Virus record (IMG/VR): IMGVR_UViG_3300026518_000008
Span: 1 to 64,000 of that record
DNA from: a virus
DNA length: 64,000 nucleotides
Strand: one strand, 5' to 3'
Shown: one piece after another, positions 49,333 to 59,097 of the stretch
Layout of the letters: each line of letters starts with the position of its first letter
How positions within the stretch are numbered: position 1 is the first letter of the stretch
Translations under genes and position numbers: made by a program
The notes under the pieces: model-generated
The model's database searches: none
Told to the model about the DNA's origin: nothing
What the model saw: the letters and a program-made list of their open reading frames with translations, nothing else

Positions 49333-49407
49333 TTCCACACTATTTTTATATATCAACTGATGTATTTATTTATTAATATATCATTTTTTATATCAAAGGA
49401 CACATAT

Positions 49408-50472
49408 ATGTATTTAGTAAAATACTTTAAAGATGAGATAAGACGCAGATATTTTGTTGATAGTAATAACAATTATGCTGCAAATATGATAGTTGATGAG
49501 AGATGTATAGTTTCTACATTATATAGTAGAGATATGGTTCAAAGAGATCACTATGTTATATCAGAATGGTTTTCTAATAAATATGGAATTAGACAACTTC
49601 CATTCAAATTTATGCTTCAGACATTGAATATCAGTGATAAAAAACTAAAATCCCTGGTTCTTGCAGTGAAACGAAAAAGACTAGAATTTGTTTTTGCAGG
49701 ATTTGGAGGAACTGGTATGAATACTGCATATTGGTTACAGAAAATTCTTGACCATACAGGAGATGTATACTTATTTAATAGCGTACATGTTTACGATGAT
49801 GACGAGATTGAATTTTCAAATCTTTTTAGATTTCCACAGGATTTATCGTCATGTACAGAGAACAAGAAAGCATTTATGTATACTAATAAAAACTCACTTG
49901 GTAGAAAGTATTATAAAGTAGCAGATACAATTAAATTTGTAAATCCATCTATTGAATATAGATTTGCTAATGTAGAATTATTTGAACACACAGACTATAC
50001 ACATAGACTTTCGTTTGCAGACGATACTATTGTGTATGGAGCACCAGATCTTGCTACTCGAAAAGATGTTTCTCTTACTAATTGTAGATTCATAGCAGCT
50101 ACTCATGGGGGAAATTCTTGCTCTATGACAGTACAGCCAGACATTGATGAGAACTTACAGACAGAGGGATATGGTGTAATACACTTGAACACATTTTTCT
50201 GGAATCAACTCGCTATGGCTATTGGACTTTTAGAGTTCCTTGCGGAGGACGATATTCAACAGATAGAGACTACTGATATTAATTCAGATGGGACTCCTGT
50301 AATGAACCTTGATGGTACTACTTCTACAATACTTGCAGATGTGTCTAAATGGGATCAGGAAGGGCAAATATTTAAGTTCAGCTTTGAGGATTTTGTTGAC
50401 TCTGGTTCATTTGGTAAAGCTTCCAGAATTCTTGATTTTAATATTACTAAAGACAATGGAGGACGAGTATGA
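49408..50472 (+). CDS. ThiF/E1-like adenylyltransferase
   Basis: AGFGGTG, YDDDEIEFSNLFR, IVYGAPDLATR. Confidence 0.8.
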   Translation: MYLVKYFKDEIRRRYFVDSNNNYAANMIVDERCIVSTLYSRDMVQRDHYVISEWFSNKYGIRQLPFKFMLQTLNISDKKLKSLVLAVKRKRLEFVFAGFGGTGMNTAYWLQKILDHTGDVYLFNSVHVYDDDEIEFSNLFRFPQDLSSCTENKKAFMYTNKNSLGRKYYKVADTIKFVNPSIEYRFANVELFEHTDYTHRLSFADDTIVYGAPDLATRKDVSLTNCRFIAATHGGNSCSMTVQPDIDENLQTEGYGVIHLNTFFWNQLAMAIGLLEFLAEDDIQQIETTDINSDGTPVMNLDGTTSTILADVSKWDQEGQIFKFSFEDFVDSGSFGKASRILDFNITKDNGGRV

Positions 50473-51617
50473 TATCATTTCAAAAACAAACAAGCACAAT
50501 AGATCATGCTATCAAAAACACTGTTTTGGCTAAGTTAAATAGTGTTTTAGAGACATCTATGTCACATACAAATCCAGATTTATATAATCCATCATCTAGT
50601 CTTGGCAAATCATTGTATCCAGTAGATATGACGCATGGACTTAGTACAGAAATAGGAATGTGGAGCAATTCCATGAAAGACGAGAGTTCTGTGCTTATTG
50701 ATGCTATTGGTTCGGATACATTATCTTTTGGACCGGTTACACTGAGCGAGGGATTGTCATTGATAAAAAATGAAATTACTTCTGGAACTTTCTATGGTGT
50801 AGTAGCTGTTAATAGCTTGACAAATGAACGAATAAATCCACTACATCCACTGATTGCTAAAGAGATATCTGAGAACTGGGATATTTACAAGGATCAGAAG
50901 TTTAATTTTTATATCTTTTCTGGAAATTGGAGGGGAGACCCAGATGCTGACCTTGAGTTATACACAAATAGTATAGTGCAGCTTTTATCAGAATACGGAG
51001 AAAGACAACTAATTTCATATGTTTCATCTACACTTGCCGTTGTTAATAATGACATAGAGATACCTATAACATCAGATGAAAACGTTCAAGAAATATTGTA
51101 TAACTACATGGACGGAAAAAGCATAGAATTAGTAGATTCTACATTATTAAAATTACCGAATGGAAATTCGCCATATTTTATTGTACCAGTGCAAATTGTT
51201 AGCGACGGAATTGCTTATCCTTACTATGGAACTTCATTGTTGCAGCAAGACATTCGCAATAGTGAGGATAGTGAAACAGAAGATCTATGGGGTACAGATT
51301 TGTCACCTATGGGATCTGCAAATATTGGAAATAATACAACTAATCCGACAGCATCTGAATTTTTCTCTGTATGTACTGGAGGACATGGCGTCGACGATTA
51401 TGGTATGGCTACTATAAATCAGAGCAATCTTCAGTCTCCTATGAATTCTGAATGTTTATCTCCAGAATGGAGAGAATATGTAGCAGCTTGTCTCAACATT
51501 AGCTATGAGATATTTGACTCATTACTAGATTCCACTCCACAAAAAATACTTACTAGAGCAGATTTTGATACTATACCAGAATGGTTAGAACATTTATCTA
51601 CATTACATTTACATTAA
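50469..51617 (+). CDS. prokaryotic E2-like conjugating enzyme
   Basis: SANI...SVCTG then NLQSPMN resemble UBC HPNI...C and NxxSPxN; between E1 and JAB. Confidence 0.55.
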   Translation: MISFQKQTSTIDHAIKNTVLAKLNSVLETSMSHTNPDLYNPSSSLGKSLYPVDMTHGLSTEIGMWSNSMKDESSVLIDAIGSDTLSFGPVTLSEGLSLIKNEITSGTFYGVVAVNSLTNERINPLHPLIAKEISENWDIYKDQKFNFYIFSGNWRGDPDADLELYTNSIVQLLSEYGERQLISYVSSTLAVVNNDIEIPITSDENVQEILYNYMDGKSIELVDSTLLKLPNGNSPYFIVPVQIVSDGIAYPYYGTSLLQQDIRNSEDSETEDLWGTDLSPMGSANIGNNTTNPTASEFFSVCTGGHGVDDYGMATINQSNLQSPMNSECLSPEWREYVAACLNISYEIFDSLLDSTPQKILTRADFDTIPEWLEHLSTLHLH

Positions 51618-51629
51618 AGGATTGTACAC

Positions 51630-52913
51630 ATGGCTTATCATATAAATACATCTAGACACAACGCTACTCCAACTCAGAAGAATGCATCAGTTTGCTCTGT
51701 ACCAAAGTATGACTTTGTAGGAAAAATTCACACCACATCTACTGGTGATCTTTTTGGAGTGCTTTTACTACAGCAGGAAACTCTTGACGAGATATTCGAG
51801 CAGAGCGGACCACTTGCTGTATCGAATGAATTTCAGTTCCACTATACATCATTAGTTGGGAAACTTCAGAACCAGGGGCAGGAGCTCTATATTAGTATTC
51901 CACTTGTATGTTACAACTACAAACAGACGGTATCTGGAGCTCACATTGGATTCAACCTTGAGGACACTGAGACTATGTCAGATGATACTCTTGAGATCGC
52001 ACAGATGAAGGCTGCAGAATTTCTTAGTACAGATACTCGTACTCAGATAGAGTCTATCTTTGGAGAACTTGATTGGCATGTTGCTACACTACAGACTATG
52101 CACAGACATCCAGGAGGTTCATCTCAGGGATTCTCAAGTACAGATCTTATGACAGATCCAGACAGAGCTGGAATTGTATTTCCACTTAATGAGTCTATTG
52201 AGAAATCTATCAGTTTTTCATCTATTATGTATGTGCAGAATGGATCGTGTAGACTTGCTCATACTGAGGTTCGTACTGCACTTGGTTCAGCTTCAGAGAA
52301 GAGTGGAATACTATACAGCAATGGTAGATCTATTACTATTGTTGCTGGATATGATTCTACGCCTACAGAGCTTGATACTATGTTTGGCATACCTGGATAC
52401 ACATCTACAGATACTGTATATTTTGATGACATGCCTACCACTACAGATATACCTCAGCAACTTACATCTATAATGAGAGAGTCCTCTTTTAGGCCAGAGA
52501 TATTTATTGATGAAAATCATTTATCCACTGAGACTACTTACTATGGGAAGCAGAGAAAACCTTTGATTAAACAATCAGAATTTACAAAATCCACAGATAG
52601 CTTTCAAAATACTAACCAGCTGAGCTTATTTAGTAGAGGACTTGAAGATGACATCGTATTTGATCAAGATGAATTATATGAAGATTATATAGATCCATTA
52701 GATCAGGATTCATCTGGAATGTATACACAAAATCCATTTGAGCTTGATCATATGGACAGAGAGATACTTACAGATGCACTTAGAGATGAACTTGCAGATA
52801 TTACATATTGCGGAACCAAGAGTCATGTTTTCACAGAACGAGAGATTGCTCTCAAGCCTGAACATGAGATCTGGAGATTATCCAGAACTCACAAATTACT
52901 AAAACCACTATAG
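51630..52913 (+). CDS. JAB/MPN+ metallopeptidase
   Basis: NEFQ...QTVSGA...MHRHPGGSSQGFSSTD (E...HxH-x8-SxxD). Confidence 0.8.
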   Translation: MAYHINTSRHNATPTQKNASVCSVPKYDFVGKIHTTSTGDLFGVLLLQQETLDEIFEQSGPLAVSNEFQFHYTSLVGKLQNQGQELYISIPLVCYNYKQTVSGAHIGFNLEDTETMSDDTLEIAQMKAAEFLSTDTRTQIESIFGELDWHVATLQTMHRHPGGSSQGFSSTDLMTDPDRAGIVFPLNESIEKSISFSSIMYVQNGSCRLAHTEVRTALGSASEKSGILYSNGRSITIVAGYDSTPTELDTMFGIPGYTSTDTVYFDDMPTTTDIPQQLTSIMRESSFRPEIFIDENHLSTETTYYGKQRKPLIKQSEFTKSTDSFQNTNQLSLFSRGLEDDIVFDQDELYEDYIDPLDQDSSGMYTQNPFELDHMDREILTDALRDELADITYCGTKSHVFTEREIALKPEHEIWRLSRTHKLLKPL

Positions 52914-52923
52914 GACATATATT

Positions 52924-53814
52924 ATGGCTACAACATTTCAAACATTGTATGGTTCAGATGATTTGTTTTTTACACCAGAACACCAATTTGGTATACGACG
53001 TTCAGAATTAGCTGATGCAACATCTAATTCTGATACAACTACAGAAAATACATCTATTCCTGACCCAATTGATACTAACCAATCAGAACCAGGTGAGATG
53101 ATTCCGTATGACACTTCACGAGATATTACATCATTGATTACAGAATTTCATGATCATCATGACAGGCTAGAAGGTGATGCATATGTATTTGATGCAGAGA
53201 TGCTATCAAATACTAGACTCCAGAATTTCCTTATGACTATTGATCATAGGGCTAGACCAGAACAGAGAAAGATTACTATGCCAGATATGAGCAGAATTAT
53301 TGAGCATGGGCTATCTATGATTGTAGATGGATATGATCAACTTGAGTATAGAGACTGTTCTAAAGTATTTCATTTTAATAACGGAGATGTACTGCTCAGA
53401 GTATCTGGATTCATCAATAGAGCTACTGAAACTATTGAAATTATTCGTTATACGAAGAAATTCAAAGTAGACCGCATGATTGATGATGTCCAGGCAAGAC
53501 GAGTATTTGATTATTCGTTATATGCATCAGCATTTCTACTAGCATCAAGATATCCAGCTATTGGAACTATGATTAAAACAATTCATGAGCATTTTGGTGA
53601 ATTTCATATCACTGAGCATTTCCCGTATATATCCAGCAATAATACTATTGAGTCAATACTTGAGGCATATATATCTGATATCAATTCTGGAGAATTGCCA
53701 CCAGAGTGCGAGGACAAATGGACCACTCGGGCTGGAGTTAATTCTCGTTGTGAGAAATATTGTTCAGTTAAAGATATTTGTCCATTTTACACTCCTACTC
53801 ACGCTGGTTCTTAG
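52924..53814 (+). CDS. Cas4/PD-(D/E)XK-like protein with C-terminal Cys cluster, catalytic motif degenerate
   Basis: LPPEC...RCEKYCSVKDICPF. Confidence 0.5.
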   Translation: MATTFQTLYGSDDLFFTPEHQFGIRRSELADATSNSDTTTENTSIPDPIDTNQSEPGEMIPYDTSRDITSLITEFHDHHDRLEGDAYVFDAEMLSNTRLQNFLMTIDHRARPEQRKITMPDMSRIIEHGLSMIVDGYDQLEYRDCSKVFHFNNGDVLLRVSGFINRATETIEIIRYTKKFKVDRMIDDVQARRVFDYSLYASAFLLASRYPAIGTMIKTIHEHFGEFHITEHFPYISSNNTIESILEAYISDINSGELPPECEDKWTTRAGVNSRCEKYCSVKDICPFYTPTHAGS

Positions 53815-53820
53815 ATAGTA

Positions 53821-54256
53821 CAGCTGGGTGTCGTTTCAGTCGACTTCTTAAGTAGAAAGTGTTCTCCCCAGCACATGTATTAATTCATTTGCGAGATAAT
53901 ATTCGTATCCTGCTTAGTGTGCGTGGTAGATACACAGAGCATTTTTCCATTTGGCAACTATTTACCATTTGGAAGAACACTACAGAACCAGAGTGATGAT
54001 CATCCCACAGAGAACTCATAGGAGTTTTGTTTGGGTCGATTCATATCAGTCCCTCTAACCTTAGACAGGAAGAGAAAAGAATATGCGTGTTTAGTATCAG
54101 AATTTATGCGTTAAGAAAACTGAGATGTTAATTTGTGATATTGAGTTGTAACTGCAAAACAAAAATATTAATTGGGAATATTTATATTACTAGAACGAGT
54201 CAGTGTGGCATTGCGTCTACACATACAATTCTAGTCTCCAGAAAGATGCCCAGCTG
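53821..54256 (+). ncRNA. candidate large structured ncRNA (~435 nt)
   Basis: ends pair (CAGCTGGGTGTC-G-TTTC / GAAAGATGCCCAGCTG); several internal stems; no ORF. Confidence 0.6.
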
Positions 54257-54314
54257 GAGTAGCGATATGAGTCTATTTATATATACTTAGTATTCGCTAT
54301 ATATTTTTATATAT

Positions 54315-54392
54315 GTCTCAGCTAAACCCACACCTTATTTAAACATAGGATGGATAGCTTACTGGCAGTGCAAGTCTGTCCTGAGTACACCA
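54315..54392 (+). ncRNA. tRNA-like element without D arm
   Basis: GTCTCAG/CTGAG(T)AC acceptor, GGCAG-TGCAAGT-CTGTC T arm, ACCA end. Confidence 0.5.
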
Positions 54393-54546
54393 AAGTCTTA
54401 ATATATAATCTATTCTTGCAGAATACAGATACAACTAAACTGATTATATTTGTGGTAGTAGTATGCCGTGAGAATATAAAATATTGCCAATATTAATACT
54501 GCTATTAAGTTTTTAGTGTAACAACACGCCTATAACTATAGAACAT

Positions 54547-54656
54547 GAATCATTAGCTTACACATTGGTAAATCGGATCGGTATTTGTGGAACCAAGATT
54601 TCCTAAGGAGTGCATCCTTGTAGTTAAGACACTGGTTCGAGTCCAGTATGGTTCTC
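54547..54656 (+). ncRNA. enlarged tRNA-like element (His GTG-like loop)
   Basis: GAATCAT/ATGGTTC acceptor, ACTGG-TTCGAGT-CCAGT, extended anticodon arm, extra arm AAGGA-GTGCA-TCCTT, no encoded CCA. Confidence 0.55.
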
Positions 54657-54670
54657 TATAAACACTTTAT

Positions 54671-54702
54671 GTACCATTAGCTCAGTCTGGTAGAGCACTG
54701 TT
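54671..54702 (+). ncRNA. orphan tRNA 5' half
   Basis: GTACCAT-TA-GCTC-AGTCTGGTA-GAGC-A; does not pair with the adjacent CGGGCCC 3' end. Confidence 0.65.
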
Positions 54703-54709
54703 TCTATTA

Positions 54710-54869
54710 GTATAGAACGACGGTTCGAATCCGTCCGGGCCCACCATATGTGCCATTAAATTTGTATCGGTAGCATTATACGCGAGATAATTCGCAAAGG
54801 ACCAGAGTTCAATTCTCTGGATGGCACACCACATTAGGGCCCGTAGCATGAGCGGTTCATGCACTATAC
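54710..54869 (+). tRNA. circularly permuted tRNA-like gene 1 (3' half 54710-54746, 5' half 54837-54869)
   Basis: CGGGCCC-ACCA pairs 7/7 with downstream GGGCCCG; GTATAG pairs 6/6 with downstream CTATAC. Confidence 0.75.
54750..54831 (+). ncRNA. tRNA-like element nested in the linker of permuted gene 1
   Basis: GTGCCAT/ATGGCAC-ACCA, CAGAG-TTCAATT-CTCTG, non-canonical D and anticodon arms. Confidence 0.6.
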
Positions 54870-54925
54870 ATAATTTATTTTAAAAACCAGTGACTAGTAT
54901 ATACAATAGACTTAGCACCATAACC

Positions 54926-55005
54926 AAGTTTTAGGTCGGAAGTTCGAGTCTTCCATCGGGCGCCATTTATATGCCCGATTAGCTCAGTTGGTAGAGCAGA
55001 AATTT
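54926..55005 (+). tRNA. circularly permuted tRNA-like gene 2 (3' half 54926-54965, 5' half 54973-55005)
   Basis: ATCGGGC-GCCA, linker TTTATAT, GCCCGAT (7/7); canonical T and D arms; AAGTTTT pairs GAAATTT. Confidence 0.8.
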
Positions 55006-55015
55006 AAACATGAAT

Positions 55016-55058
55016 TACAGGGACAAATACGGTATATTTTGTCCCTGTACCTTTTTTT
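55016..55058 (+). terminator. intrinsic terminator closing the RNA locus
   Basis: TACAGGGACAAA/TTTGTCCCTGTA 12-bp stem, CC, T7. Confidence 0.75.
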
Positions 55059-55111
55059 AGAGAACTCACGGAGTTTTCTCAAATTAGGTACAGCACAATA
55101 AAGGAATTAGA

Positions 55112-56404
55112 ATGAGACAAGATATAGAGGAACGCATTAATGCTACTAAAGTTCCATACAAAATATATGCAGAGTTTGTCGAAGACAAAGCTGCAGAACA
55201 ATTTGCAAATTGCCTAGAGCAGGAGTCTGTAGTGCAAGGAGCTCTCATGCCAGACACACATGCCGGTTACGTTGCACCTATCGGTTCTGTACTAGCTACA
55301 AATGGTACTATTTTCCCATCTTTCGTTGGATACGACATCGGATGCGGCATGAGCTCTATCCGTACTAATATCCAATACAAATCAGTCTCAACAGAACAAC
55401 TAGAGGCTATTAAAAATCAGATTCTTAGAGATATTCCTATTGGTTTTGAGAGACATTCTAAACCTAAGACACATATCGTAGAAAGATTTCCTATGACACC
55501 TTTTGCAAAGGACGTGTTACGCACCACTGGTTCTTATCAGTTAGGCACACTTGGCGGAGGGAATCATTTCCTTGAAATAGGATATGACAATGACGAATAT
55601 TTAAATATAGTTGTTCACTCAGGTTCGCGTGGTGTTGGACATAAAATTGCCACTAAATATATGAAAGAGGCTGCAATTCAATCAGTAGACGAATCTAGAT
55701 ATAGAAAAGAATTTGATGAGAAAAATAAAGCTTGGCTAAATAAAATTTTAAACAGCAAATCATCTCCAGCTAATGACAAATTACAGGATAGATACGACAA
55801 AGCTAAAACTGAATTTACTTATCGTCGCACCAGAGCTAGAGTATCGAATATTGAGGATGCGTATCCATTAGATAACACATCAGAACCAGGGATGGGATAC
55901 ATGCAGGATATGAACATGGCATTGGAATTTGCTTTAGAGAATAGAGAGCTAATGATAGGTAGATCAGTAGCTGCTATTGCTAAAGTTCTTGGCCAGGATA
56001 TTTCTACTTCTCGCTTTATCAATCGAAATCATAACCATGCAGAACTAGTAGATGGTAGATGGATACATCGCAAGGGAGCCACTCAGGCTGCAGATGGTAT
56101 GATTGGAGTTATACCAGGAAACATGGTAGATGGCTCGTTCATAGTTAGATGTAGAGGTAGCTCAGATTCTATGAATTCATCATCTCATGGAGCAGGTAGA
56201 GTTTTATCTAGACGAAAAGCCAAGGATACTCTTGACCTAGAGGAGTTTATTTCTAGCACAGCTCACCTAATAGCGAACCATTCTGATTCAAACCTAGACG
56301 AATCTCCACTTGCATACAAAAATATTTTTGATGTAATGGAACAGCAGTCAGACTTGGTTAAGACACTAGACAGAATTGTACCAATTATAAACATTAAAGG
56401 GTGA
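55112..56404 (+). CDS. rtcB: RtcB RNA 3'-phosphate/5'-OH ligase
   Basis: MPDTHAG, VGYDIGCGM, LGTLGGGNHFLE, HSGSRG, HNH, HRKGAT, HGAGR, DESPLAYK. Confidence 0.96.
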   Translation: MRQDIEERINATKVPYKIYAEFVEDKAAEQFANCLEQESVVQGALMPDTHAGYVAPIGSVLATNGTIFPSFVGYDIGCGMSSIRTNIQYKSVSTEQLEAIKNQILRDIPIGFERHSKPKTHIVERFPMTPFAKDVLRTTGSYQLGTLGGGNHFLEIGYDNDEYLNIVVHSGSRGVGHKIATKYMKEAAIQSVDESRYRKEFDEKNKAWLNKILNSKSSPANDKLQDRYDKAKTEFTYRRTRARVSNIEDAYPLDNTSEPGMGYMQDMNMALEFALENRELMIGRSVAAIAKVLGQDISTSRFINRNHNHAELVDGRWIHRKGATQAADGMIGVIPGNMVDGSFIVRCRGSSDSMNSSSHGAGRVLSRRKAKDTLDLEEFISSTAHLIANHSDSNLDESPLAYKNIFDVMEQQSDLVKTLDRIVPIINIKG

Positions 56405-56408
56405 AATT

Positions 56409-58466
56409 ATGATAGACAACAGAATAGAAACAATTACACATACGAACGCACCAATCCAGGATTTTAGTATAGCAATGAACGCAAGCATGTTTCAGATGTT
56501 AACAAAAAATGTTTACACCAATGTTATTGCTGCAGTAATCAGAGAATGGAGCACCAATGCTATTGACGCATGTATTGCAGCTGGAGTTTCACCACGATTT
56601 GATGTACATCTTCCTACGATAGCATCACAAGTTTTTTCAGTTAGAGATTTTGGTACTGGTCTATCATCAGATGATGTACACGGACTGTTTTCAGCTCTTG
56701 GAGCATCTACAAAACGTGAGTCAAATCAATATAACGGTACTTTTGGAATTGGCCGTATGGCTGGACTAGCATACACTGATATGTTTACTATTGAATCATT
56801 TTTCAATGGAACATTATCTACATATGTTGTATCTATACAAGATGGAATTCCGAATATGATATCTATCAATGATACAGATACAGATCTTCCAAATGGAATG
56901 AGATTATCTATTGATGTTAGAGAGTATGATATAGATAGGTTTACTAGTGAAGCTAGAGATATATATCAGTATTTTGACACTAGACCAGATACGAATATCC
57001 AGCTTGAATATCAAGATTATTCATCAAATCTATCAGGAGATGGATGGTACATTATTAATACAAACGTTAGAAATTACAATCTTAATTTAGTTATGGGAAA
57101 TGTTTTATATACTGTATCAACATCGCAACTTAATAAAGAAGCTAGAGATGTTCTTGAAATACATGGCTTAGTGCTAGATGTACCTATTGGATCCGTATCT
57201 ATTACTCCTGGTAGAGAATCGTTGAATCTTGATAATACTACTATTACATATTTAAACAATAGTTGCAAACATGTAATAGATCAATACGAAGAACAGTTGA
57301 CTAATTTAATATGCAGTTTCGACAAAGACTTTGACAAAATTATTGCATATAGCAAATATATAACAAGGCTTGGATGGAACTTGCAAAATAGATTTAAAAA
57401 TATTAGTATAGACTACAGCACACTCTATGTTAAAAACAACTGTTTGCGTTCAATAAATATGGAAGTAGGTGTGTATTATTTTAAAAATGGATTTAAGAAT
57501 ATTAAATCAGTAAATGAATATATACACATAACGAATAGCACTATATTCTGCATTGCAGATACAAGAATACATATTGTTGAATCTATTAAAAAATATCTAT
57601 TAGAAACAAATAATAATTTTGTAGATGTATATATAGTAAAGCCAAATAGGTGGAGTAGTGATCCAGAGGACATTAAGTCTCATGTTCAATCATCTATAGA
57701 ATTATTTGATGAAATTGGAATAAAGAATTACTTTAAAACATCTGACTACTCAGTGGAGAATATACAACGCAAGAAGTCAGGTAAAATTTCAACTATAGAT
57801 TTCATGTTTGAAAACAAATATGATACAGAACCTATATCTAAAAAAGGAGTAGAGATATTATCTATAGATACTGGACCATTCTATTATATAGAAACTTCTG
57901 GATTTAAACCTATTAGTATGACTCCAGATGAATTATCATTGCATATGAGAGCTGCTAAATTTTATGATAACATAAATTCTACAAATACACGAATAGTTGG
58001 TGTGCCAAAATCAGCATTACGAAATACTGTTGATGACGATAGATTCATTCCATTGGCTGGAGCACTTGATGATATATTTTCAGAAATGACTATGCCTAAA
58101 TATTTTAACGATATTGGACATGAGAATTCGTTTATCCTATATGATAACAGAATACATAGATATACAAATCTAAATTTGCCAGATGAACTTATTGAGTTTA
58201 TTACTGAGCACAAAAAATTCTTTGAACAAAACAGACAATGTATATTACCTGCAAATGCTGTTGGGATTAAGGATAGATTTGGATGCAATGTATCATCTCC
58301 TAATTCTAAGTTGTCACTTGAGGACGTGATGGAGAAATATCCATTATTTATGTATATACTTGATACATTCTATAGAGATGGTTTGTATTTATCTATGGAA
58401 CAGATAGAAAACTATGTACAGACTATATATGAAGCAGGAGACGAAGATGAGCAAAATGACCAATAA
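56409..58466 (+). CDS. rIIA: rIIA-like protein (GHKL ATPase N-terminus)
   Basis: IREWSTNAIDA, VRDFGTGL, STKRESN...GTFGIG, SITPGRESL. Confidence 0.85.
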   Translation: MIDNRIETITHTNAPIQDFSIAMNASMFQMLTKNVYTNVIAAVIREWSTNAIDACIAAGVSPRFDVHLPTIASQVFSVRDFGTGLSSDDVHGLFSALGASTKRESNQYNGTFGIGRMAGLAYTDMFTIESFFNGTLSTYVVSIQDGIPNMISINDTDTDLPNGMRLSIDVREYDIDRFTSEARDIYQYFDTRPDTNIQLEYQDYSSNLSGDGWYIINTNVRNYNLNLVMGNVLYTVSTSQLNKEARDVLEIHGLVLDVPIGSVSITPGRESLNLDNTTITYLNNSCKHVIDQYEEQLTNLICSFDKDFDKIIAYSKYITRLGWNLQNRFKNISIDYSTLYVKNNCLRSINMEVGVYYFKNGFKNIKSVNEYIHITNSTIFCIADTRIHIVESIKKYLLETNNNFVDVYIVKPNRWSSDPEDIKSHVQSSIELFDEIGIKNYFKTSDYSVENIQRKKSGKISTIDFMFENKYDTEPISKKGVEILSIDTGPFYYIETSGFKPISMTPDELSLHMRAAKFYDNINSTNTRIVGVPKSALRNTVDDDRFIPLAGALDDIFSEMTMPKYFNDIGHENSFILYDNRIHRYTNLNLPDELIEFITEHKKFFEQNRQCILPANAVGIKDRFGCNVSSPNSKLSLEDVMEKYPLFMYILDTFYRDGLYLSMEQIENYVQTIYEAGDEDEQNDQ

Positions 58467-59097
58467 AATTAGGGTTAAATTTACATTATCTAGCAATAAT
58501 GTTATTGTATTCATTGACGGAACTAAATTTTATTCAGATACATCACATAACAATTTCAAAAATATAACAGAGCTACTGTCAGACTGGAGAGAGACTAAAA
58601 AAAAAGTCAGTAAACTTAGATCATTATTTATTGTTCCAGAGGATGTATCTAGATATATTGGTACGGAATTACAATTAGATCACCTTATGAATCTTATTTT
58701 TAGAGGAATTGTTCTTCCACAATATTTTTATAAACTTGTACTGTATATGATTGCAAATGATTTTGATATTGGTATACTCATTAGATTACTTAACAATATA
58801 TGGATATCAGATGCAGACACACACATTGTGTTACAGTTTATAGATAGAAGACATATGGCAATTACGCCAGATGGATGTTTTCTTGAAAAAACACATAATG
58901 GAAAAAATATGATTGTAGAAAAAATAAATCCATTAGATATTACACGATGTAATAGAGAAATATTAGAAGCATCAAGCACGCAGTTTATTGCTTGTTGTGA
59001 ATCATACGACGATATAGACATTTATAACAAACCATCAGTTATTATTGATGACAACTATGATAATTTATACAAAATTTACACAGGAGATATATTATGA
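58447..59097 (+). CDS. rIIB: rIIB-like protein
   Basis: follows rIIA; LIRLLNNI...FI....MAITPDGCFL. Confidence 0.65.
   Translation: MSKMTNKIRVKFTLSSNNVIVFIDGTKFYSDTSHNNFKNITELLSDWRETKKKVSKLRSLFIVPEDVSRYIGTELQLDHLMNLIFRGIVLPQYFYKLVLYMIANDFDIGILIRLLNNIWISDADTHIVLQFIDRRHMAITPDGCFLEKTHNGKNMIVEKINPLDITRCNREILEASSTQFIACCESYDDIDIYNKPSVIIDDNYDNLYKIYTGDIL

Follow-up and report, generated by a model that had tools for sequence, protein, structure and literature searches.

A phage array of permuted tRNA-like modules preceding rtcB, probably a variant of the YrlA-type tRNA mimics

The stretch at 54710-54869 of the window, the window being the whole 64,000-nucleotide stretch of DNA analysed and the first 64 kb of a 93-kb IMG/VR phage record (IMGVR_UViG_3300026518_000008) rated 85% complete, is probably the middle unit of a phage array of non-decoding, Ro60-independent tRNA-mimic RNAs of the YrlA structural class. 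Much lower confidence attaches to any specific binding partner of these mimics. Each unit would consist of a tRNA body in permuted order, with the entry/exit stem of the RNA replacing the anticodon arm. The preliminary description of this DNA had interpreted the stretch as a permuted tRNA with another tRNA-like gene nested in its linker. The permuted topology and the nested element were borne out by the analysis, whereas the designation as a tRNA gene was not, there being no visible route to an anticodon loop. The nested tRNA-like insert, the daisy chain of three units and the absence of both known partner genes are unusual at this locus.

The presence of terminase and rIIA/rIIB genes in the record indicates that the virus infects bacteria. 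Approximately 1.3 kb lacking a credible ORF lie between a 296-aa ORF (52924-53814) and rtcB, and along the plus strand three permuted modules are followed by a terminator-like hairpin and then by rtcB, which begins 50 nt past the terminator (Table 1). The hairpin was missed by a consensus terminator scan since its loop is longer than 8 nt. With ARAGORN and Rfam, the canonical tRNAs identified in the record were limited to one for Gln and one for Ser at 26.9 kb. No match was obtained when 54500-55110 was compared by blastn with 50,697 phage records, and searching 53700-55400 against Rfam at permissive E-values gave weak YrlA and tmRNA matches and nothing else, whether ribozyme, intron, RNase P or any other family.

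Several features of the flanks are recorded here as separate observations. The non-coding head of the array (53815-54300, ~450 nt), earlier listed as a separate candidate for a large structured RNA, gave no Rfam match even at permissive E-values. The 296-aa ORF matched no Pfam or PHROG family and no IMG/VR relative by peptide patterns; its C-terminus contains a cysteine cluster, C..CxxxCxxxxxC, reminiscent of Cas4/AddB-type iron-sulfur nucleases. Three tightly packed genes occupy 49360-52913, previously listed as a candidate E1-E2-JAB cassette, with no Pfam or PHROG match at the thresholds used. Genes encoding rIIA-like (685 aa) and rIIB-like (227 aa) proteins directly follow rtcB at 56409-59097.

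Table 1. Positions in the window of the modules, their parts and the neighbouring elements.
Feature	Positions	Strand	Description	Basis
Upstream aberrant tRNA-like element	54314..54394	+	bulged acceptor-like helix, T-like arm GGCAG-TGCAAGT-CTGTC, ACCA end; weak	
Upstream aberrant tRNA-like element	54589..54655	+	GGAACCA/TGGTTCT helix, module 1 T arm, internal hairpin; z = -1.1	
Module 1	54631-54696	+	acceptor ATGGTTC/GTACCAT 6/7; 16-nt loop without CCA	
Module 2 (flagged), core span	54719-54862	+	acceptor CGGGCCC/GGGCCCG 7/7; loop 94 nt, starts ACCA	
Module 2 closing ("anticodon-stem-like") helix, 5' strand, and variable region	54710..54718	+	GTATAG (54710-15); 3-nt variable region AAC	sequence
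Module 2 T arm	54719..54735	+	GACGG-TTCGAAT-CCGTC	sequence, folds
Module 2 acceptor 3' strand, encoded discriminator and CCA	54736..54746	+	CGGGCCC (54736-42); ACCA (54743-46)	
Nested tRNA-like element in module 2 acceptor loop	54750..54831	+	82 nt, ends ACCA	fold
Module 2 acceptor 5' strand	54837..54843	+	GGGCCCG	sequence, folds
Module 2 UA linker and D arm	54844..54862	+	GCAT-GAGCGGTTC-ATGC (54846-62)	sequence, folds
Module 2 A26-like base and closing helix, 3' strand	54863..54869	+	CTATAC (54864-69)	sequence
Module 3	54926..55005	+	core 54938-54997; acceptor ATCGGGC/GCCCGAT 7/7	
Terminator-like hairpin	55017..55059	+	11-12 bp, 10-nt loop, then a run of seven T	folds and sequence
rtcB, RNA 3'-phosphate/5'-OH ligase gene	55112..56404	+		Pfam RtcB, E = 4.7e-81

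In module 2 the 3' half (54710-54746) precedes the 5' half (54837-54869), the letters being exactly as first reported, and the linker contains the nested element as claimed. The acceptor strands pair at 7/7 positions, all Watson-Crick, and the strands of the closing stem at 6/6. The claim that both stems pair only in the permuted order was borne out for the acceptor stem; it does not strictly apply to the 6-bp closing stem, which has a local rival formed by 54712-17 (ATAGAA) with 54702-07 (TTCTAT) that was preferred by MFE in every context tried. The T arm has the G53-C61 closing pair and a loop of the T54-psi55-C56-R57-A58 type. The T loop, the GG of the D loop, the UA and C48 of the elbow are all kept; the D arm is atypical, with G14, C21 and A15 opposite C48, and can zip to 6 bp with a 5-nt loop.

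A script requiring a T arm, a 7-nt strand and the complement of that strand followed by TA and a D arm identified three permuted modules in the whole window, all of them in this region and all on the plus strand. The units are daisy-chained, the D-arm side of one running straight into the T-arm side of the next. Module 1 has the T arm ACTGG-TTCGAGT-CCAGT and a canonical D arm, GCTC-AGTCTGGTA-GAGC. Its T arm could instead close a linear element with GAACCA (54590-95), and the 54589-54655 element and the module 1 acceptor are mutually exclusive. Module 3 comprises a 7-bp closing stem (AAGUUUU/GAAAUUU), the variable region AGGUC, the T arm GGAAG-TTCGAGT-CTTCC, an 11-nt acceptor loop made up of GCCA and a 7-nt linker, and a canonical D arm; folded alone it adopted the permuted cloverleaf with z = -2.7. 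Both upstream elements were rejected by ARAGORN, and the fold of that at 54314-54394 was no better than those of shuffled sequences. Altogether five or six tRNA-like elements are present in the region, all with an intact acceptor/T half and none with an anticodon arm, and three or four copies of NCCA are encoded there, after the acceptor 3' strands of modules 2 and 3 and at the nested element among others. Since the acceptor/T halves and NCCA are kept while the anticodon arms are all lost, the results indicate selection for the top half and elbow of tRNA and not for decoding. In the largest fold computed (54300-55065), TACTGGCAGTGC...TCTGTCCTGAGT pairs over ~18 bp with the D-arm region of module 1; this pairing, of 54360-54386 with 54680-54700, competes with the module 1 D arm and may be due to chance.

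The folding of the array was compared with expectations from ordinary tRNA genes. In each of three contexts the MFE fold contained the T and D arms as well as the nested element and the long-range acceptor helix of module 2, and the 506-nt fold of 54560-55065 had z = -6.0. The null consisted of an IMG/VR scan for a T loop, NCCA, 4-14 nt and a D arm, a pattern also found in ordinary tandem tRNA genes. Acceptor complementarity at 124 ordinary tandem-tRNA junctions ranged from 0 to 6 of 7 with G-U pairs allowed, and none of the 124 (0/124) reached 7. As encoded, the modules gave no ARAGORN call and no match to Rfam RF00005 at the gathering threshold. When the halves were rejoined in silico, modules 1, 2 and 3 were each called as tRNAs by ARAGORN at default settings, while the linear chimeras 54671-54746 and 54837-54965 and joins between wrong partners were rejected, in agreement with the earlier proposal that the rejoined order is superior to alternative pairings. 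These results bear on a linear reading of the locus as a row of aberrant tRNAs (54671-54746 and others) with acceptor stems that are simply unpaired. The first of these has a tRNA-like length of 76 nt, D and T arms in the normal order and an Rfam tRNA score of 26 bits obtained without the acceptor; however, GTACCAT and CGGGCCC do not pair, no cloverleaf is formed (z = -0.4) and ARAGORN rejects the sequence, which makes the linear reading exceedingly unlikely.

The linear gap of 22 nt between the D arm of module 1 and the T arm of module 2 has the spacing of real tRNAs, and, together with the 26-bit score on the linear reading and the frequent location of phage rtcB genes beside tRNA genes, is consistent with an origin of the array from a tRNA cluster rearranged by duplications and deletions such that 3' halves came to precede 5' halves. 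An origin of YrlA from dimeric tRNAs has likewise been proposed (bioRxiv 10.1101/312249). That the modules are non-functional debris of such a cluster is nevertheless quite improbable. Three different acceptor helices pair at 6-7 of 7 positions and five different T stems at 5/5, NCCA is kept three or four times with loss of all anticodon arms, a pattern of selective retention, the array ends in a good terminator, and the design recurs in unrelated loci. Scars of phage integration were likewise discounted as an explanation, since an att site contains only the 3' portion of a tRNA and in no case a 3' half with its own 5' half immediately behind it.

The nested element, with the acceptor strands GTGCCAT/ATGGCAC and the T arm CCAGAG-TTCAATT-CTCTGG, contains an 8-bp acceptor-like helix stacked on a 6-bp T stem, and its interior lacks both a canonical D arm and an anticodon arm. 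Folded alone it reached -25.3 kcal/mol with z = -3.4. Neither ARAGORN nor the Rfam tRNA model called the element at 54750-54831. Since a T arm was found in none of the eight long acceptor loops (0/8) of the RNAs associated with DUF7873, the nested tRNA-like element appears peculiar to the window locus.

The possibility was considered that the modules are true permuted or split tRNA genes, the halves of which are excised and joined in the anticodon loop to yield decoding tRNAs. Such a route might employ the adjacent phage RtcB, which would join 2',3'-cyclic phosphate and 5'-OH ends after cleavage: RNase P and 3' trimming would open the acceptor ends, some nuclease would trim the other ends and RtcB would seal the anticodon loop. 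RtcB is the tRNA-splicing ligase in archaea and animals, and its gene lies 50 nt past the terminator. The ARAGORN calls on the rejoined halves, the NCCA at the proper place, the 7-bp acceptors and the UU/AA that flank the break of module 3 at would-be positions 32-33 and 37-38 are in accord with this route. The break of module 2 is not, since the nucleotides beside its closing stem provide neither U33 nor a purine at 37; this module also has a non-canonical D arm and a variable loop of 3 nt, and module 1 is without CCA. Inspection of the flanks revealed no bulge-helix-bulge at the break, and no Rfam ribozyme was found at the junctions. An archaeal or eukaryotic splicing endonuclease is not expected for a phage of bacteria, and we know of no splicing endonuclease in a bacterial host. 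Furthermore, the design is widespread with closed acceptor loops of 4-12 nt, which offer no free acceptor end unless processed. The identity assigned by ARAGORN depended on placement of the junction alone, module 2 being called Asn, Lys, Ile or Leu and module 3 Gly, Val, Phe or Leu. The original statement that the anticodon cannot be assigned is therefore correct, as the anticodon varies with the junction chosen. A hint of Ile2/Met ancestry had been drawn from CATAA overlapping the end of the 5' stem; the motif is present at 54869-73, but the ancestry finds no support given the dependence of identity on the junction. True permuted tRNA genes are, on this evidence, very improbable; in the bacterial world they would be without precedent, both as permuted tRNA genes and as a case of tRNA maturation dependent on RtcB. 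In a milder form of this reading, the processed, CCA-ended two-piece mimics may be charged, or may be decoys for host toxins that attack tRNA 3' ends.

In order to place the array among related loci, ~235 distinct RtcB loci from viral, metagenome and genome collections were examined, among which the metagenome relatives listed were mostly of 42-51% identity; RtcB relatives of 58-98% identity exist. Besides the window, permuted modules were found in the flanks of 3 of the ~235 RtcB loci listed, indicating that linkage to RtcB is not a rule and may reflect neighbourhood only. Modules of the window type recur in these three loci, a Sulfurovum MAG, L096 and L120, with different and fully compensated helices. 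In the Sulfurovum MAG (L093, identical to L212) a pair of daisy-chained modules neighbours a WYL regulator; in L096 a single module is located upstream of genes for an Rnl2-type ligase and RtcB; and in L120 two modules immediately follow a DUF7873 gene and are themselves followed by tRNAs, RtcB and a Ro60 gene. Across seven modules from the four loci, pairing is kept in 97% of cells, with both sides of each of the seven acceptor pairs changing; because the modules were picked by a pairing filter, this count documents the pattern and does not test it. A covariance model (R1) built from the three modules of the window mostly matched ordinary tandem tRNA junctions with unpaired acceptors elsewhere, and the pairing-aware script was of more use for finding modules in other loci.

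Additional features of these and other RtcB loci were observed. In the Sulfurovum MAG (L093:270-420, minus strand; JAMORY010000008.1) rtcB is 3.6 kb away from the modules, which lie a short way downstream of an HTH-WYL-WCX regulator. The second of them runs into a canonical-looking anticodon arm, AAGTG-TTTTGGA-CACTT, with the anticodon UUG, and so amounts to a whole tRNA, closed at the acceptor and with its permutation point in the variable loop. The metagenome contig ERZ890604 NODE-434 (L120:649-5955) is a one-strand RNA-repair island with DUF7873, modules at ~1486-1555 and ~1642-1708, tRNA-Trp, two tRNA-Lys, RtcB, Ro60/TROVE-vWA, NADAR and a methyltransferase. According to ARAGORN, tRNA-Pro is located directly beside rtcB in many unrelated phage contigs (L008, L010, L013, L019, L023, L037, L045) and the same adjacency occurs at the phage loci L060, L064-L068 and L076. 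A Sedimenticola MAG (L237) considered as a second nested case proved to contain an ordinary Pro-Asn-Lys-Tyr tRNA array.

A parallel in design was found downstream of phage DUF7873 genes, where one or two permuted modules lie within a few hundred bases in 73 of 80 loci. Among 110 modules of this family (64 distinct loci) NCCA directly follows the acceptor 3' strand in 46 (42%), against a chance expectation of ~2%, and the acceptor loops range from 4 to 134 nt. Encoded CCA and long inserts in the acceptor loop are thus features of a wider class. The DUF7873-associated double tRNA-mimic RNA was not found in Rfam or in the literature searched. The array could be a member of this family whose partner gene resides in the missing 15% of the genome or is supplied by the host, as the record is only 85% complete and the modules share the 7-bp acceptor, the NCCA with a short linker, the tandem arrangement and the occasional long inserts. 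In the family, however, the protein gene sits directly upstream, and that position is occupied here by the 296-aa ORF, which has no Pfam match and is unrelated to DUF7873 (hhalign probability 0.6%). No DUF7873 was detected in the record at E <= 10. An nhmmer profile of 69 family RNAs, of limited sensitivity as it rested on a rough alignment, matched only the module cores of the window at 11-19 bits, no better than a real tRNA junction at 14.5 bits. Membership of the array in the DUF7873-associated family is therefore considered unlikely. In five phage DUF7873 loci (L397, L414, L367, L370 and L401, ~1930-2330) repeated AAGYTSAGRYTSA-like motifs precede the first module and recur in the gap to the second, which is followed by a TTAAACG-like motif; in the window TTTAAAC immediately follows module 3, though in AT-rich DNA this may be a coincidence.

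YrlA, a Y-RNA-like RNA, is the partner of bacterial Ro60, and its tRNA-like domain is a circularly permuted tRNA mimic (bioRxiv 10.1101/312249). Its gene is frequently a neighbour of rtcB, and the RNA may have originated from dimeric tRNA transcripts (Wang et al. 2018, bioRxiv 10.1101/312249). YrlAs occur in tandem, with pairs processed from one precursor, and have been found in 22 phages (Chen et al. 2014, PMC4201824). The best Rfam family for modules 3 and 1 was YrlA (RF02553), with 33.9 bits (E = 3e-5) and 30 bits (E = 4e-4) respectively; both scores are below the gathering threshold of 69 bits, and module 2 had no match. The YrlA domain order, consisting of a T arm, an acceptor-like stem closed by a loop, UA and a D arm, is that of the locus, and inspection revealed all the YrlA elbow nucleotides (T-loop TTCRA, D-loop GG, UA and the last pyrimidine of the variable loop) in modules 1 and 3. 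The motif GNCGAAN0-1G near the YrlA 5' end is the presumed Ro60 contact (PMC4201824). It is absent from 53815-55110, the only matches being within rtcB. No TROVE gene (Ro60) was detected at E <= 10 in the 93-kb record, 85% complete, and none is present in the five Campylobacterota MAGs that carry the closest cellular RtcBs. The gene-context definition of YrlA calls for a Ro60/TROVE gene within ~4 kb on the same strand, and the locus has none. Strict membership in the YrlA family thus fails, as the scores are subthreshold and neither the Ro60-binding motif nor a TROVE gene was detected. Module 2 also gave a weak match to the Rfam family tmRNA_permuted (RF04321), with 23 bits versus a gathering threshold of 47, and ARAGORN found no tmRNA and no tag reading frame.

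From the sequence we infer that the array would function as a tRNA mimic, in the following manner. The array would be transcribed as one precursor that folds into a series of tRNA-like elbows. The determinants of RNase P are a 12-bp acceptor/T helix and NCCA. Processing by RNase P is likely in view of the 7-8-bp acceptors stacked on T arms together with the NCCA of units 2 and 3 and the nested element. By analogy with the YrlA of M. smegmatis, host RNase P and 3' trimming would probably open the acceptor loops, with predicted cuts 5' of 54750, 54837 and 54973 and trimming to CCA ends at 54746, 54831 and 54965. That YrlA, which has a 7-bp acceptor, is cleaved by RNase P in vivo and in vitro, after which CCA is added (PMC4201824). 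Processing of the array would free the nested element as an 82-nt minihelix RNA, and the neighbouring units would then be nicked, two-piece tRNA mimics with free CCA ends, held together by the acceptor and closing helices only. The mimics most likely would engage, without Ro60, a protein that recognises the elbow or acceptor end in a conflict over tRNA damage and repair. Candidate roles are a cofactor or scaffold for repair by RtcB, or a decoy titrating a host tRNA-binding factor. To our knowledge YrlA-type tRNA mimics are known only as partners of Ro60, whereas this phage, in whose record neither Ro60 nor DUF7873 was detected, has the same design immediately ahead of an RNA-repair ligase gene. 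The locus is a compact test case for three questions: whether RNase P opens such RNAs into two-piece, CCA-ended molecules; whether the mimics cooperate with RtcB or serve as decoys when phage and host are in conflict over tRNA; and, with linear tRNA spacing still visible between units, whether tandem tRNA genes give rise to YrlA-like RNAs.

Some green algae and archaea have permuted tRNA genes. Such genes were reportedly described also in Cyanidioschyzon merolae, by Soma et al. in 2007. As in the window, the 3' half of the C. merolae-type gene is upstream of the 5' half and a cloverleaf is obtained only when the halves are rejoined; unlike the window, these genes have a bulge-helix-bulge, a splicing endonuclease, circularisation and a defined anticodon, and CCA is not encoded. 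Two-piece tmRNA of alpha-proteobacteria and cyanobacteria resembles module 2 in the succession of T arm, acceptor 3' strand, CCA, removed segment and acceptor 5' strand, whereas pair 3:70 of module 2 is G-C in place of G3-U70 and its D arm is full. The RNAs associated with DUF7873 share with the array tandem permuted modules, 7-bp acceptors, frequent NCCA with a short linker, occasional long loop inserts and a location in or near phage tRNA and RNA-repair regions, whereas the array is without a DUF7873 gene and without sequence similarity outside generic tRNA-like cores. The array differs from YrlA in the encoded NCCA, the daisy-chained units, the tRNA-like element nested in an acceptor loop, the absence of the Ro60-binding motif and Ro60 gene, and scores under the Rfam threshold. 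It is like YrlA in the permuted tRNA body, in ends that form a stem replacing the anticodon arm, in the conserved elbow nucleotides, in the tandem copies, in the location beside rtcB that is frequent for YrlA, and in its occurrence in a phage. Overall, the locus is most likely best filed as a variant of the YrlA-type tRNA mimics and not as a permuted tRNA gene.
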